A stretch of DNA of 64,000 bases from the NCBI RefSeq assembly GCF_055900595.2, contig NZ_CM148325.1; one strand, written 5' to 3'. The position numbers are program-made. Positions 37,501-46,500 of the stretch are shown here, one piece after another (positions within the stretch are counted from its first letter, which is position 1; each line of letters opens with the position of its first letter).

Positions 37501-40500
37501 CTGTATCAAACCAACCTGGTGCCGGTGGGTGAAGACCAGAAACAGCACCTGGAACTGAGCCGCGATATCGCCCAGCGTTTCAACGCGCTGTATGGCGATA
37601 TTTTTAAAGTGCCGGAACCGTTTATTCCGAAATCCGGCGCGCGCGTAATGTCGCTGCTGGAGCCGACCAAGAAGATGTCCAAGTCTGACGATAATCGCAA
37701 TAACGTTATCGGCCTGCTGGAAGATCCGAAATCGGTCGTGAAGAAAATCAAACGCGCGGTCACTGACTCCGACGAGCCGCCGGTAGTTCGCTATGATGTG
37801 CAGAATAAAGCGGGCGTTTCCAACCTGCTGGATATCCTTTCTGCGGTAACTGGCCAGAGTATCCCGGAACTGGAAAAACAGTTCGAAGGCAAGATGTATG
37901 GTCATCTGAAAGGCGAAGTGGCTGATGCCGTTTCTGGTATGCTGACTGAATTGCAGGAACGTTATCACCGTTTCCGCAACGACGAAGCCTTCCTGCAACA
38001 GGTCATGAAAGACGGCGCAGAAAAAGCCAGTGCACACGCTTCCCGGACGCTGAAAGCGGTTTACGAAGCGATTGGTTTTGTGGCGAAGCCGTAATTTAAC
38101 ATTAATGCCAAAAACCGGGGAAACCCGGTTTTTTTATCCTCATTTGCAATAATCCGAAAAAATGTGAAGCGCCTCGCCGTTTCCACATCTCACAGTTGCC
38201 ACTTATCTTCATTTTAATGAAGATATAAACATTCATTTTATTGAAAATATATTATGCGTCGAACGTTTATCAAAAAAGAAGGCGTCGTCATCACGACACT
38301 GGCCCGTTATTTGTTGGGTGAAAAATGCGGTAATCGACTGAAAACCATAGATGAACTGGCAACTGAATGCCATTCATCCGTTGGCCTGACGCAGGCCGCG
38401 TTGAAAACGCTGGAATCAAGCGGTGCGATACGAATTGAACGCCGCGGGCGCAATGGCAGTTATCTGGTGGAAATGGATAACAAAGCACTGCTGAGTCATG
38501 TGGATATCAACAACGTTGTGTGTGCCATGCCCTTGCCCTATACCCGCTTGTACGAAGGTTTAGCGAGTGGACTGAAAGCTCAGTTTGATGGCATTCCTTT
38601 TTATTATGCGCACATGCGCGGTGCGGATATTCGCGTGGAGTGTTTGCTTAACGGTGTCTATGACATGGCGGTGGTTTCCCGACTGGCGGCAGAAAGTTAT
38701 CTCACGCAAAAAGGCTTATGCCTCGCGCTGGAGTTGGGGCCGCATACCTACGTTGGCGAGCACCAGTTGATTTGCCGTAAAGGCGAGTCCGCAAACGTGA
38801 AACGCGTGGGGCTGGATAACCGTTCGGCGGATCAGAAAATCATGACCGATGTCTTTTTTGGCAGTAGCGATGTAGAACGTGTCGATCTCTCTTATCACGA
38901 GAGTTTACAACGCATTGTTAAAGGCGATGTCGATGCGGTGATCTGGAACGTGGTAGCGGAGAGCGAACTGGCCATGCTGGGATTAGAAGCGATGCCACTG
39001 ACGAACGATCTGCGATTTTTACAGGCTACTGAAGCCGTGATACTAACGCGTGCCGATGATTACCCAATGCAACAACTGCTGCGTGCAGTGGTTGATAAAC
39101 AGGCCCTGCTTGCCCATCAACAACGAGTGGTGAGTGGGGAACAGGAACCCAGTTATTAAATGAAAGGCATCTGAAATGGAAACCAGACTCAACCTGCTTT
39201 GCGAGGCAGGCGTTATTGATAAGGACATCTGCAAAGGCATGATGCAGGTCGTCAAGGTACTGGAAACCGAATGCCATTTGCCAGTGCGCAGCGAGCAAGG
39301 AATGATGGCGATGACACATATGGCGAGCGCACTGATGCGCAGTCGCCGTGGTGAAGAAATAGAGCCGCTGGATAACGAATTGCTGGCAGAGCTGGCGCAA
39401 TCCAGCCACTGGTCAGCCATTTTACAATTGCATCAGGTGTTGTTGAAGGAATTCGCACTGGAAGTTAACCCGTGTGAAGAAGGCTATTTGCTGGCCAACC
39501 TTTATGGATTATGGATGGCTGCTAACGAAGAGGTTTGAGGCTCCCGACAAATCCACGTCGCACAACCTAAATATTCAAAAAAATGAATATTTAATTCAAG
39601 GAACAGAAACGAGGCAACAAGATGTTTGTAGAAGCATTGAAACGCCAGAACCCGGCACTGATTTCCGCCGCACTAAGATTGTGGCAACAGGGCAAGATCG
39701 CCCCGGACAGTTGGGTAATCGACGTGGATCAGATACTGGAAAACGGTAAGCGGCTGATTGAGACGGCGCGGCTTTACGGCATTGAACTGTATCTGATGAC
39801 CAAGCAGTTTGGTCGTAATCCGTGGCTGGCGGAAAAACTACTGGCATTGGGCTACAGCGGCATTGTGGCGGTGGATTACAAAGAGGCGCGAGTCATGCGC
39901 CGCGCCGGTTTGCCGGTGGCGCATCAGGGGCATCTGGTACAAATCCCTTGTCATCAGGTTTCTGACGCCGTTGAACAGGGCACCGACGTCATCACCGTGT
40001 TTACACTCGACAAAGCGCGGGAAGTTTCTGCCGCAGCGGTGACGGCCGGGCGGGTCCAGCCTGTGCTGCTCAAAGTTTATAGCGACGATGATTTTCTTTA
40101 TCCGGGGCAGGAGAGCGGTTTTGCACAGCATTCGCTGCATGAGGTGGTTGCTGAAATCCAGAAACTACCGGGGTTACATTTAGCCGGATTAACCCATTTC
40201 CCTTGCCTGCTATGGGATGAGGCTGCCGGGAAAGTTTTGCCAACACCGAACCTCCAGACGCTGGTCAATGCTCGTAACCAACTTCTGAAGTCTGGAGTTG
40301 TACTTGAGCAATTAAACGCGCCTTCAGCGACCAGCTGCACTTCGCTGCCATTACTGGCGGAATACGGTGTGACTCATGCCGAACCCGGCCATGCACTGAC
40401 GGGGACGATTCCGGCAAACCAGCAGGGCGACCAACCCGAACGTATCGCCATGCTTTGGCTGAGCGAAATTTCCCATCACTTCCGTGGCGACAGCTACTGC

Positions 40501-43500: not shown

Positions 43501-46500
43501 CTTTCTTCCTACCGATATCCTCGGTGTCCTGGCGATAAACAGCCTGATGGCGTTTGGCCTTGGTGCACTCTGGGGCGTACTGATCCTCACCTGCCTGCTG
43601 CCGGTAAACCAGCTGCTGACCGCGCTACCGGTGGATGTATTAGGTAGTCTGGGGGAATTAAGCTCGCCAGTGGTTTCAGCTTTTGCACTGTTCCCGTTGG
43701 TGGCGATTTTCTACCAGTTTGGCTGGAAGCAAAGTCTGATCGCCGCCGTGGTAGTGTTGATGACCCGTGTGGTGGTAGTGCGCTATTTCCCGCATCTCAA
43801 TCCGGAATCCATCGAAATCTTTATTGGCATGGTGATGCTGCTGGGGATCGCGATAACTCACGACCTGCGTCATCGTGATGAAAATGACATCGATGCCAGC
43901 GGTATGTCGGTGTTTGAAGAACGTACGTCGAGGATTATCAAAAATTTACCCTATATCGCCATCGTAGGGGCGCTGATTGCCGCCGTTGCCAGCATGAAGA
44001 TTTTTGCTGGTAGTGAAGTGTCGATCTTCACCCTGGAGAAAGCATATTCCGCAGGTGTAACGCCGGAACAATCACAAACGCTGATCAACCAGGCGGCGCT
44101 GGCGGAATTTATGCGCGGGCTGGGTTTTGTGCCGTTGATTGCCACCACCGCGTTAGCAACAGGTGTGTATGCAGTTGCGGGCTTTACCTTTGTTTATGCG
44201 GTGGGCTATCTCTCGCCGAATCCGATGATTGCAGCGGTATTAGGCGCAGTGGTTATTTCGGCGGAAGTCCTGTTACTTCGTTCGATCGGCAAATGGCTGG
44301 GACGCTATCCATCGGTACGTAACGCGTCGGATAACATCCGTAACGCCATGAATATGCTGATGGAAGTGGCGTTGCTGGTCGGTTCGATTTTCGCAGCAAT
44401 TAAAATGGCGGGCTATACCGGATTCTCCATCGCGGTTGCCATTTACTTCCTCAACGAATCCCTGGGCCGTCCGGTACAGAAAATGGCGGCACCGGTCGTA
44501 GCAGTAATGATCACTGGCATCCTGCTGAATGTTCTTTACTGGCTTGGTCTGTTCGTTCCGGCTTAAAGAAGGCACCTATGAAGACGTTTCCTTTGCAAAG
44601 CCTGACGCTTATTGAAGCGCAGCAAAAGCAGTTTGCGTTGGTGGATACGATTTGCCGCCATTTTCCCGGCGCGGAGTTTCTTACCCGCGGGGATTCAGGC
44701 TTAACGCCGGGCCTGAATCAACCGCGCATTACTCAGCGTGTGGAGCAGGTGCTGGCTGATGCGTTTCATGCGCCAGCGGCGGCGCTGGTGCAGGGCGCGG
44801 GTACTGGAGCAATTCGCGTCGGGCTGGCAGCTTTGCTCAAATCGGGGCAGCGTCTTCTGGTGCATGACGCGCCTGTTTACCCGACGACTCAGGTCATTAT
44901 TGAACAGATGGGGCTGACGCTTATTACTGCTGATTTTAATGACCTGTCGGCACTGAAGCAGGTCGTCGACGAGCAACAACCAGATGCCGCGCTGGTGCAG
45001 CATACGCGCCAGCAGCCGCAGGACAGCTATGTACTGGCAGATGTGCTGGCAACGCTGCGCGCAGCAGGTGTTCCAGCCTTAACCGATGACAACTATGCGG
45101 TGATGAAGGTGGCGCGCATTGGCTGTGAATGCGGGGCGAATGTCTCGACATTTTCCTGCTTCAAGCTGTTTGGGCCAGAGGGTGTTGGCGCGGTGGTAGG
45201 CGATGCTGATGTTATTAACCGGATCCGCGCCACGCTCTATTCCGGAGGCAGTCAGATCCAGGGCGCACAGGCGCTGGAAGTATTGCGTGGTCTGGTGTTT
45301 GCGCCAGTGATGCACGCGGTGCAGGCGGGGGTATCTGAACGGTTGCTGGCCTTGCTCAACGGTGGCGCGGTGGCGGAAGTTAAAAGCGCCGTTATTGCTA
45401 ATGCGCAGTCGAAGGTGTTGATTGTCGAGTTTCATCAGCCGATTGCCGCCAGAGTGCTGGAAGAGGCGCAAAAGCGCGGTGCCTTGCCTTACCCGGTGGG
45501 TGCAGAGTCGAAATATGAAATCCCGCCGCTCTTTTATCGACTTTCCGGAACGTTTCGTCAGGCGAATCCGCAATTAGAACATTGTGCAATTCGCATTAAC
45601 CCGAATCGCAGCGGTGATGAGACGGTATTGCGGATTTTGCGCGAGAGTATTGCCAGCGTTTAATTCTGGGAACGATGTTTTCGCAGAGTATGGAGAAAAA
45701 TACGCCCTCGGAAAATTCAGAGGGCGTTAGCTCATTAAACCGGCGTTAGCCGATTTCTGTCAGAGACTTACTGTGCAGTAGGACCGCAACCGCCAATGAT
45801 TTTAGAAATAGAAATTGCCGGGTGCAGCAGGTAGTCGTAAGAGCAGTTCTTATCACGGTTTTCAATATGACCAGTACATGCAGTTAACGTAGCCAGTACT
45901 GCACCTACCAGTGCAACTTTAATAAATTTGTTCATTTACATTCCCTATGTATTATATATTGATTAATATTCATTGATTATATGAATATAAGCGGACTGCT
46001 CATAAAGAACGATACAGGAATATTTAATTGGCGTCAGTGAGTGAATGACTTAATTTTGTAAGTCGCTGTAACGGTGAATATAATCCATTAGCAAATGATA
46101 TTTATTAAGAGGGTATGCTTTATTTGCTGAATATATAAAAAGAGTGATAAAGAGGGCCAGAATTATCTGGCCCGGGTAAAATTAATGGTTAGAGAACCAG
46201 TTCAATTTATCGCGCAGGCCAACGACCCGACCAATAATAATTAATGAGGGACTGTTCATTTGCTGCGCCAGCTCGCCCAGTTGCGTGAGCGTACCGTCAA
46301 TCACGCGTTGCGTTACCGCCGTACCGTTTTCGACAATCGCCACCGGCATTTCGCAAGGCATTCCGTGTTCAATCAGTTTTTGCTGAATGGTCGCGGCCTG
46401 ATTAAGCCCCATATAGAACACCAGCGTCTGTTTTTCGGCTGCCAGGTTTTCCCAGTCCAGCTCGCCACCGGTTTTTAAGTGTCCGGTAATTAAGCGTACG

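Follow-up and report, generated by a model that had tools for sequence, protein, structure and literature searches.

The nag and aga systems of Escherichia coli combine uptake by the NagE or Aga phosphotransferase system (PTS) with an amidohydrolase-superfamily deacetylase (NagA/AgaA), a deaminase (NagB/AgaS) and a repressor (NagC/AgaR). L-ascorbate is taken up and processed through ula (sga), which encodes the UlaABC PTS and the phospho-lactone lactonase UlaG, and in Salmonella the D-glucosaminate system dga has a mannose-type PTS, the pyridoxal phosphate (PLP)-dependent ammonia-lyase DgaE and the aldolase DgaF. The EF_0829/AHA_3910 cluster, known from TIGRFAMs and uncharacterised, holds a small PRD protein, orphan membrane proteins, an amidohydrolase and a PLP enzyme. 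Here we set beside these systems the eight-gene yhf cluster (yhfZ-yhfY-yhfX-yhfW-php-yhfU-yhfT-yhfS) found in 64,000 nucleotides of contig NZ_CM148325.1 (assembly GCF_055900595.2), a stretch called the window below. We tentatively propose that this cluster, under repression by YhfZ and linked to the PTS, serves the catabolism of an amino-sugar-like compound that is acylated or cyclised.

The yhf locus has long been known and occurs in nearly all E. coli, so that its presence in the window is ordinary. Among the multi-enzyme 'y-gene' operons of this best-studied of bacteria, it is one of the larger ones that still lack an assigned substrate. In agreement with the initial annotation on this point, no substrate or pathway assignment for the yhf genes or families was found up to mid-2026 in the searchable literature, most subscription journals lying outside it. 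YhfW was still termed a 'putative mutase' in January 2026 (PMC12924614) and YhfZ a 'putative transcription factor' in 2025 (PMC12147183), and the mentions of yhf in riboswitch, attenuator, gap-filling and metabolome papers are table entries only. Structures are available for YhfX (4KBX), YhfS (4J8L), the C-terminal domain of YhfZ (2OZZ) and Php (1BF6, 4LEF); each entry carries the label of an uncharacterised or homology protein.

Candidate operators and probable transcription units of the yhf cluster

The ORF listing of the window contains eight intact, co-directional open reading frames (ORFs), all ATG-initiated, that span positions 38254-45663 (Table 1). The coordinates given by the initial annotation are exact, all frames are open and the genes are co-directional and tightly linked, as it had claimed; they lie on the plus strand. 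Both overlaps that it described are present, as TAATG at 40783-40787 for yhfX/yhfW and ATGA at 42008-42011 for yhfW/php; the other junctions measure 10-16 nt, save the 83 nt between yhfY and yhfX. Pfam and NCBIfam scans matched each of its family descriptions, and they assign yhfY and yhfU, which had been left undescribed, to PRD and DUF2620, respectively.

The window contains three copies of the motif TTCA-W6-TGAA (starting at 38208, 38232 and 39574; O1, O2 and O3), against 0.04 expected, and none of 100 shuffled sequences reaches three. All three copies lie within the two yhf control regions, 5′ of yhfZ or of yhfX only. Alignments of the upstream regions from Escherichia, Citrobacter, Klebsiella, Buttiauxella, Cedecea, Yersinia and Vibrionaceae display the motifs as conserved islands: O1 is kept 43-46 bp upstream of yhfZ in Enterobacterales and O2 19-25 bp upstream of it in Enterobacterales and Vibrionaceae, while O3, 48 bp upstream of yhfX, forms an island of conservation within an otherwise diverged spacer in the six enterobacterial genera just listed. 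Over 1.55 Mb of related loci, 81 of the 86 exact matches belong to yhf control regions, where the spacing to yhfZ, yhfX or yhfU is fixed. We infer that this motif is the operator of YhfZ, which would presumably act as a repressor at O1-O3. YhfZ itself passes the NCBIfam model YhfZ_full, named 'GntR family transcriptional regulator YhfZ', with 372.8 bits (cutoff 260), and its Pfam matches are HTH_41 and YhfZ_C, without PF00392.

With the same operator before each of them, two transcription units, yhfZY and yhfXW-php-yhfUTS, are probably formed, a division consistent with the operon list that PMC4448311 quotes. About 40 bp upstream of O1, the sequence TGTGA-N6-TCGCC (38163-38178, plus strand) is a possible CRP-type half-site, which would fit catabolite control; TGTGA occupies one fixed column of the alignment in the yhfZ upstream regions of most Enterobacteriaceae, the adjacent bases being variable. 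The Rfam scan of positions 37900-46300 returned no RNA family (lone match at E = 0.75) and the 83-nt yhfY-yhfX gap is therefore without match to known riboswitch families. The scan for sigma-70 promoters gave no enrichment (9 against 7.9 in shuffled sequences), nor did that for intrinsic terminators (11 against 9.8), and neither result was used.

Table 1. Features of the yhf cluster in the window, occurrence of each gene among the 61 loci complete around yhfT, and selected neighbours in related loci (designated L)
Feature	Source	Position	Strand	Loci with gene	Description
trpS intrinsic terminator	window	38110-38136	+		AAAAACCGGG-gaaa-CCCGGTTTTT followed by a T run; perfect 10-nt inverted repeat; 5′ limit of the yhf unit
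Operator O1 (candidate)	window	38204-38225			22-bp perfect palindrome TATCTTCATT-tt-AATGAAGATA; core TTCATTTTAATGAA at 38208-38221
Operator O2 (candidate)	window	38232-38245			TTCATTTTATTGAA; 9 nt upstream of the yhfZ start codon
yhfZ	window	38254-39159	+	59/61	301 aa; transcription regulator, HTH_41 DNA-binding domain and solute-binding-protein-like C-terminal domain
yhfY	window	39176-39538	+	at least 57/61	120 aa; stand-alone PRD; His48, Arg55 and Glu101 invariant
Operator O3 (candidate)	window	39568-39593			26-bp perfect palindrome TAAATATTCA-aaaaaa-TGAATATTTA in the yhfY-yhfX gap; core 39574-39587
yhfX	window	39622-40785	+	61/61	387 aa; fold-type III PLP enzyme, alanine-racemase-like barrel and YhfX-like C domain
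yhfW	window	40785-42011	+	54/61	408 aa; phosphopentomutase-like metalloenzyme, alkaline-phosphatase superfamily, catalytic set complete
php	window	42008-42886	+	59/61	292 aa; phosphotriesterase-family (amidohydrolase superfamily) binuclear metal hydrolase
yhfU	window	42897-43250	+	61/61	117 aa; DUF2620, small soluble protein, RpiB/LacAB fold
yhfT	window	43262-44566	+	61/61	434 aa; polytopic membrane protein, presumed permease
yhfS	window	44578-45663	+	27/61	361 aa; fold-type I PLP enzyme, aminotransferase / Cys-Met-metabolism-like
yhfS/yhfL hairpin	window	45702-45727			ACGCCCTC-N10-GAGGGCGT between convergent genes; 3′ limit of the yhf unit
Lac/cellobiose-type PTS operon	L071	3127-6015
Lac/cellobiose-type PTS operon	L059	16442-19343
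Lac/cellobiose-type PTS operon	L051	4258-7153
Lac/cellobiose-type PTS operon	L061
Lac/cellobiose-type PTS operon	L062
Lac/cellobiose-type PTS operon	L072
CBM5/12 protein	L084	13855-16041
CBM5/12 protein	L061	13822-16137
CBM5/12 protein	L059	13942-16125
CBM5/12 protein	L062
CBM5/12 protein	L036	13040-13951
CBM5/12 protein	L041	2854-4671

A portable module under purifying selection

We scanned 100,044 species, each represented by one genome, with a YhfT peptide pattern derived from a 10-sequence alignment, and detected YhfT relatives in at least 150 of these genomes. The family is rare, with 306 representatives at 50 % clustering of 1.84 billion proteins. Eighty loci were retrieved from Enterobacterales, Vibrionaceae, Sebaldella (Fusobacteriota) and several Clostridia and Bacilli; copies in Cetobacterium and Bacillus thuringiensis are located on a plasmid or megaplasmid. 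For gene counts, the eight proteins of the window were searched against six-frame ORFs, and the 61 loci complete around yhfT were counted. Thirteen gene orders were seen, yet yhfU is immediately 5′ of yhfT in all 61 loci regardless, and yhfX adjoins yhfW in each of the 54 loci that have both. The distant metagenomic relatives (27-33 % identity) still retain mixes of PRD, DUF2620, YhfT, PTE, YhfX and YhfW. The core of the portable module is thus yhfU-yhfT together with yhfX(-yhfW), php, yhfZ and yhfY, yhfS being accessory.

This seven-gene core is common to Proteobacteria, Fusobacteriota and Bacillota, and the YhfT of E. coli is up to ~60 % identical to its clostridial and fusobacterial homologues. 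Such identity, combined with a patchy distribution across phyla, argues for a horizontal spread of the module. Composition was also considered as a transfer signal and rejected, the GC content of 0.48-0.55 being the same as that of the flanks; because the window is native in this respect, mobility is deduced only from the patchy distribution across phyla. The B. thuringiensis copy, on a 485-kb plasmid (L096; also L089), is a yhfW-less variant with the order PRD-DUF2620-YhfT-PTE-YhfS-YhfX. It is bordered on one side by three tandem genes of ~40 codons and an ABC transporter and on the other by three ATP-grasp or hypothetical genes (151-782 and 14151-18711 of L096), which may constitute an unrelated peptide-modification cluster.

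Within E. coli, region 38000-46000 was compared by megablast with 5,426 complete genomes; 5,425 of them gave a match, covering at least 80 % of the query in 5,058. The best match, an E. coli chromosome (L001), is 99.9 % identical, and its RefSeq annotation lists the same eight genes in the same order, flanked by trpS and yhfL/cysG. The yhf cluster (38254-45663) is 90-95 % identical to 5,275 E. coli records and reaches at least 99 % in 8, while the aroK-trpS flank (31000-38100) is 95-99 % identical to 5,407 records. The window thus represents a small divergent lineage in which the cluster is more diverged than its flank, possibly by allelic dimorphism or recombination. At synonymous positions (dS), each gene differs by 0.14-0.53 from another E. 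coli allele, a distance close to that from E. albertii. Comparison with this other allele gives ratios of nonsynonymous to synonymous changes (dN/dS) of 0.00-0.10 for the eight genes; with E. albertii the values are 0.03-0.12 and with Citrobacter 0.04-0.10. Purifying selection is thus strong on all eight, which are therefore real genes rather than chance ORFs.

These values bear on a further reading, in which E. coli keeps the cluster as a decaying or cryptic remnant, or else as a promiscuous detoxification set with Php as an esterase or phosphotriesterase, without dedicated physiological substrate. Decay does happen sporadically: yhfW is a pseudogene with an internal stop in L001 (8786-10012), where the window counterpart is intact, and split genes are found for yhfT and yhfS in L054, for yhfW in L064 and for yhfU, yhfT and yhfW in L084. 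In addition, ~370 of the 5,426 E. coli genomes fall short of 80 % query coverage, and a report of a phenotype or an inducer was not found in the searched literature. Yet dN/dS stays at 0.00-0.12 for all eight genes with dS up to >1, the catalytic residues are invariant across phyla, an operator and a regulator are dedicated to the cluster and conserved, and the seven-gene core is kept between three phyla. We regard a remnant or detoxification set as highly improbable.

The trpS terminator and the yhfS/yhfL hairpin delimit the unit (Table 1). In L001, trpS is annotated at the position matching the terminator found in the window, and yhfL lies on the minus strand. The hairpin between yhfS and yhfL probably corresponds to the yhfL terminator, since its T run is on the minus-strand side, and it may work both ways; it was overlooked by the terminator scan because its loop exceeds 8 nt. 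The interval between yhfS and cysG in the window (45664-46181) lacks frlABCDR, yhfS being followed directly by yhfL and cysG. On the K-12 map this fructoselysine operon sits between yhfL and yhfS. The frl-less junction is also found in other E. coli genomes (H15-H18), and in K-12-like genomes (H19-H23) the match begins only past yhfS.

YhfY, YhfU, YhfT and the phosphotransferase link

By profile comparison, YhfY is a canonical stand-alone PRD (PTS regulation domain). The profile built from 29 homologues matches the PRD of LicT (1TLV) with E = 4.7e-9, that of a BglG-family protein (3GWH) with 4e-7 and that of GlcT (3RIO) with 2.8e-4, and Pfam PRD is recorded on YhfY homologues. In LicT PRD1 and PRD2 alike, the first conserved His, which is phosphorylatable, is the counterpart of the invariant His48, and Glu101 falls on the glutamate conserved among PRDs. 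Their second conserved His is kept in Firmicute YhfY and is replaced by Asn in gamma-proteobacteria. YhfY shares this signature with the BglG/LicT-type regulators but differs from them as a single free-standing domain of ~120 residues, devoid of an RNA- or DNA-binding domain and of a second PRD. With the PRD model of the EF_0829/AHA_3910 cluster it gives a weak match of 27 bits (cutoff 69.35), and is therefore not a member of that group.

Gene neighbourhoods provide a second link to the PTS. The gene of Enzyme I is directly 3′ of yhfW, overlapping its end, in a Clostridiales genome (L074), and the HPr gene takes the same position in another Firmicute (L080), while L002 carries a gene for a Lac-type Enzyme IIC (EIIC) 3′ of yhfW. 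In six Vibrio/Photobacterium loci a Lac/cellobiose-type operon EIIB-EIIC-EIIA-DUF7916 adjoins the cluster, EIIA being undetected in one of them. Its promoter region contains the exact TTCA-W6-TGAA motif in five of the six and near-matches only in the sixth, placing this operon in the same regulon as yhf. DUF7916 (296 aa) has no NCBIfam or PDB relative. No kinase gene was found in any yhf locus examined. Relative to the initial annotation, the cluster is hence linked to the PTS, is probably divided into two transcription units and has yhfS as an accessory rather than a core gene.

YhfU adopts the RpiB/LacAB fold, and its invariant loop G-x-C52-x-[TS]54-G-x-G aligns with the catalytic Cys66/Thr68 of RpiB (hhalign, E = 0.022), though its Pfam match is to DUF2620 only and not to the RpiB/LacAB model. 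The catalytic and binding set of E. coli RpiB comprises Asp9/His10, Cys66, Thr68, His99/Asn100 and a C-terminal Arg cluster. Of these YhfU keeps Cys52 and Thr/Ser54 alone: it has G-L at the N-terminal position and no His-Asn, and the phosphate-binding residues and the C-terminal helix are absent. In contrast to RpiB/LacAB, it is moreover ~30 residues shorter (117 against 149 aa) and genetically tied to a membrane protein. This partner, YhfT, matches the family model of the same name with 603 bits, and no solved structural homologue of it was found. Compared with PTS Enzymes II, YhfU lacks the EIIB fold (Lac/Cel or Gat/Mtl) with Cys in the first beta-alpha loop, and YhfT displays neither sequence nor structural homology to EIIC of the Glc/Lac superfamily. 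No yhf transport component belongs to a recognised Enzyme II family.

A non-translocating module would be one way to accommodate these features. YhfT would work as an ordinary secondary transporter driven by ion coupling, with YhfU as a soluble aldose-ketose isomerase of the RpiB kind, the substrate would be imported as a phosphoester or phosphorylated by an unlinked kinase, and YhfY would only report PTS or catabolite status to YhfZ. A periplasmic class B acid phosphatase gene beside the cluster in Enterobacter sp. BIGb0383 and Pluralibacter, with a PAP2 phosphatase in the former, hints at an external phosphoester, and the separate canonical Lac-type PTS within the same regulon in Vibrionaceae also fits. 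Against it, YhfU is without equivalents of RpiB Asp9/His10 and His99/Asn100 and without the C-terminal sugar-phosphate-binding arginine helix; yhfU stays beside the permease gene in all 61 loci while the order of the enzyme genes changes, an uncommon arrangement for a soluble isomerase of a pathway; in two Firmicutes a gene for Enzyme I or HPr has joined the cluster; and a linked kinase was never found. We consider this arrangement possible, though on the unlikely side.

A bolder form of the PTS link would be that YhfT, YhfU and YhfY together constitute an unrecognised type of PTS Enzyme II, feeding an amino-sugar-like compound in phosphorylated form into a new Php-YhfW-YhfX pathway that ends at glucosamine-6-phosphate or a keto-acid. 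Its hypothetical parts would be a new-fold permease (YhfT), an RpiB-fold phosphocysteine carrier (YhfU, Cys52) and a free-standing PRD as phospho-relay or EIIA substitute (YhfY). This hypothesis, which we find doubtful at present, draws on the PRD, the missing kinase, the invariant cysteine and the genetic linkage rather than on homology. If YhfT and its RpiB-fold partner did phosphorylate on import, they would represent a new Enzyme II type in a system deemed fully catalogued.

Some YhfT homologues are found apart from the module. In a Firmicute, a lone homologue (36 % identity) lies in a housekeeping context 5′ of an Orn/Lys/Arg decarboxylase-family gene (L003, 1068-3765). The most distant homologue examined (27 % identity) stands alone beside a PNP_UDP_1 nucleoside phosphorylase gene (L088, 10001-11978), a pairing found on two independent contigs, which hints that the wider YhfT family may carry ribosyl compounds. 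Candidate fusions of DUF2620 to php were rejected as E. coli frameshifts or artefacts of over-extended gene calls.

Enzymes, neighbours and the proposed pathway

Php belongs to the phosphotriesterase (PTE) family with its binuclear metal site (Pfam PTE, 476 bits; PRK09875, 643 bits), and H12, H14, E125, H158, H186 and D243 are invariant in 25 cluster homologues. It falls far below the curated cutoffs for organophosphate hydrolase (OPH, 97.6 against 500) and for phospho-furanose lactonase (NF045706; 94.4 against 630). PTER, a mammalian relative from the PTE family with an H26/H28/E169 metal site, hydrolyses N-acetyl amides, e.g. N-acetyltaurine (PMC11374699). Php and PTER share the PTE fold and a His-His-Glu-type binuclear site, H12/H14/E125 of Php being equivalent to the three PTER residues. 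As PTER, a hydrolase of N-acetyltaurine and N-acetyl-beta-alanine, and the cog1735 phospho-sugar lactonases demonstrate, small N-acyl amides and phosphorylated lactones are natural substrates of the family in addition to phosphotriesters. Given the PTER activity and the equivalent metal site, amide hydrolysis is within the range of the Php family.

YhfW passes a single model, the phosphopentomutase PRK12383 (728.9 bits; cutoff 254), and remains under the cutoff of both DeoB models (TIGR01696, 142.6 against 341.2; PRK05362, 179.4 against 256). Aligned with B. cereus phosphopentomutase (3M8W), it keeps DS.G.G, G.DT..GH.EI.G, D..GH, ADHGNDP and HTRE, and D10, D83, H88, D298, H302, D338, H339 and H350 are invariant in 24 homologues. 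Thus YhfW resembles DeoB of the deo operon in retaining all the metal ligands and the Thr nucleophile motif, but it forms a separate subfamily (PRK12383), has a diverged cap domain and is never linked to nucleoside phosphorylases. YhfX combines Pfam Ala_racemase_N (E = 5.9e-22) with YhfX-like_C; its Lys61, invariant across phyla within the motif M-T-K-Q-x-G-R-N, is the predicted PLP lysine, and YhfX scores 27.6 with the ornithine racemase model, far below its cutoff of 480. YhfS matches Pfam YhfS-like_C, Aminotran_1_2 and Cys_Met_Meta_PP. No yhf enzyme passes any curated equivalog cutoff beyond that of its own yhf-specific model.

For three of the yhf proteins the nearest characterised relatives, DeoB, RpiB and phospho-furanose lactonase (NF045706, E = 6.8e-27), belong to pentose-phosphate chemistry and, together with the PNP_UDP_1 pairing of the remotest YhfT homologue examined, they could indicate that the substrate contains a ribosyl or pentofuranosyl group, as in a nucleoside-like compound or a conjugate of ribose with an amino acid. 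YhfW would then be a genuine pentose 1,5-phosphomutase, YhfU an RpiB-type pentose-phosphate isomerase and Php an enzyme of the phospho-furanose lactonase type, leaving disposal of the amino acid to YhfX and YhfS. We judge such a substrate distinctly unlikely: the DeoB equivalog score of YhfW is far from its cutoff and its cap/substrate domain aligns poorly, the lactonase score of Php is equally far from its cutoff, no nucleoside phosphorylase, nucleoside hydrolase or ribokinase was found in any true yhf cluster, and the NagB, CBM5/12 and Lac-type PTS neighbours favour hexosamines.

These neighbours belong to a larger set of lineage-specific additions. In Thalassobacillus and Melghirimyces, a true glucosamine-6-phosphate deaminase gene, nagB (TIGR00502, 293.6 bits; cutoff 236.9), is directly 3′ of the cluster, and in the Fusobacteria Sebaldella and Cetobacterium an amidase gene is found inside it. 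Besides the class B and PAP2 enzymes mentioned above, phosphatase genes include a ComB-type one in Thalassobacillus and Cof-type HAD ones directly after the cluster in L004 and ~2.4 kb downstream, on the opposite strand, in L060. Pluralibacter adds a KdgM-type porin. A secreted protein of ~730 aa with a C-terminal CBM5/12 chitin-binding module, whose N-terminal region has no Pfam family match, adjoins the cluster in six loci from Photobacterium, Pluralibacter and Enterobacter (Table 1). These additions point to amino-sugar and phosphoester chemistry, and the suggestion in the initial annotation that a modified amino acid or amino sugar is catabolised gains support from the nagB, amidase, chitin-binding-module and Lac/cellobiose-type PTS neighbours. 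In the wider flanks of the Firmicute and Vibrio loci we found no recurrent theme, and the genes there (pyruvate-formate-lyase-like, glycogen phosphorylase, UvrD, transposase, TonB receptor, amino-acid permease) were treated as unrelated.

We infer from sequence the operator-binding protein, every phosphotransfer, every reaction with its order, and the class of substrate, and the pathway could run as follows. YhfZ would bind O1/O2 over its own promoter and O3 before yhfX, and would be released by the substrate or a pathway intermediate, while YhfY would couple the system to the PTS via phosphorylation of His48. The permease YhfT would act in uptake with its obligate partner YhfU; most economically, the compound would be phosphorylated PTS-style as it enters, with Cys52 of YhfU as phospho-carrier; phosphorylation on entry would explain why the module is free of kinase. 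Php would hydrolyse an amide, lactam, lactone or ester, giving a free amine or an opened ring, and YhfW would move the phosphate group. YhfX would then perform PLP chemistry, an epimerisation or an elimination, at the amine-bearing carbon, YhfS providing a second PLP step where it is present. The product would enter central amino-sugar metabolism, for instance as glucosamine-6-phosphate delivered to NagB.

Several points weigh against this proposal. An experimental test of any of its steps was not found in the searchable literature. EIIA is absent from the E. coli yhf cluster, natural fusions of DUF2620 with PTS domains are absent among the best 120 of 1533 homologues, and the presence of a canonical Lac-type Enzyme II in the Vibrionaceae regulon means that YhfT/YhfU need not be a phosphorylating importer. 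Some loci do without parts of the module, seven from Yersinia having no yhfW and two from Enterovibrio none of php, yhfZ and yhfY. Finally, the accessory genes vary by lineage and could be chance neighbours.

The analysis nonetheless makes the yhf question experimentally addressable, with a defined operator, a likely repressor, a predicted PTS dependence and a narrowed substrate class. It names two candidate phospho-acceptor residues, His48 of YhfY and Cys52 of YhfU, and glucosamine-6-phosphate as a possible product. Confirmation of YhfT/YhfU as a phosphorylating importer would also provide the orphan Php/PTER branch within the phosphotriesterase family with a physiological role in bacteria.

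The general plan of the proposed pathway is akin to that of the PTS-linked operons nag/aga, ula and dga and to PRD control of the BglG/LicT type. With nag and aga, yhf would share repressor-controlled operons, PTS-linked uptake, a metal hydrolase that frees an amine and an amine chemistry feeding glycolysis, and nagB is even appended to the cluster in two Bacillales. However, no yhf protein falls into the Nag or Aga families: the hydrolase is of the PTE family and not NagA, the permease is without a solved structural homologue, the amine step would be carried out by the PLP enzymes YhfX and YhfS instead of a NagB- or SIS-type deaminase, and a phosphomutase is present. The ula system shows that a cyclic ester can be imported by a PTS and its phosphorylated ring then hydrolysed by a binuclear metal hydrolase, in an operon without kinase. 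Yet UlaG has a metallo-beta-lactamase fold and not that of PTE, UlaA, UlaB and UlaC are members of recognised EIIC, EIIB and EIIA families, and ula includes no PLP enzyme, PRD protein or phosphomutase. In dga, PTS-linked uptake of an amino-sugar acid precedes a PLP step on the phosphorylated intermediate. DgaE is a SelA-like enzyme of fold-type I, whereas the conserved PLP enzyme of yhf is of fold-type III, and yhf has no aldolase.

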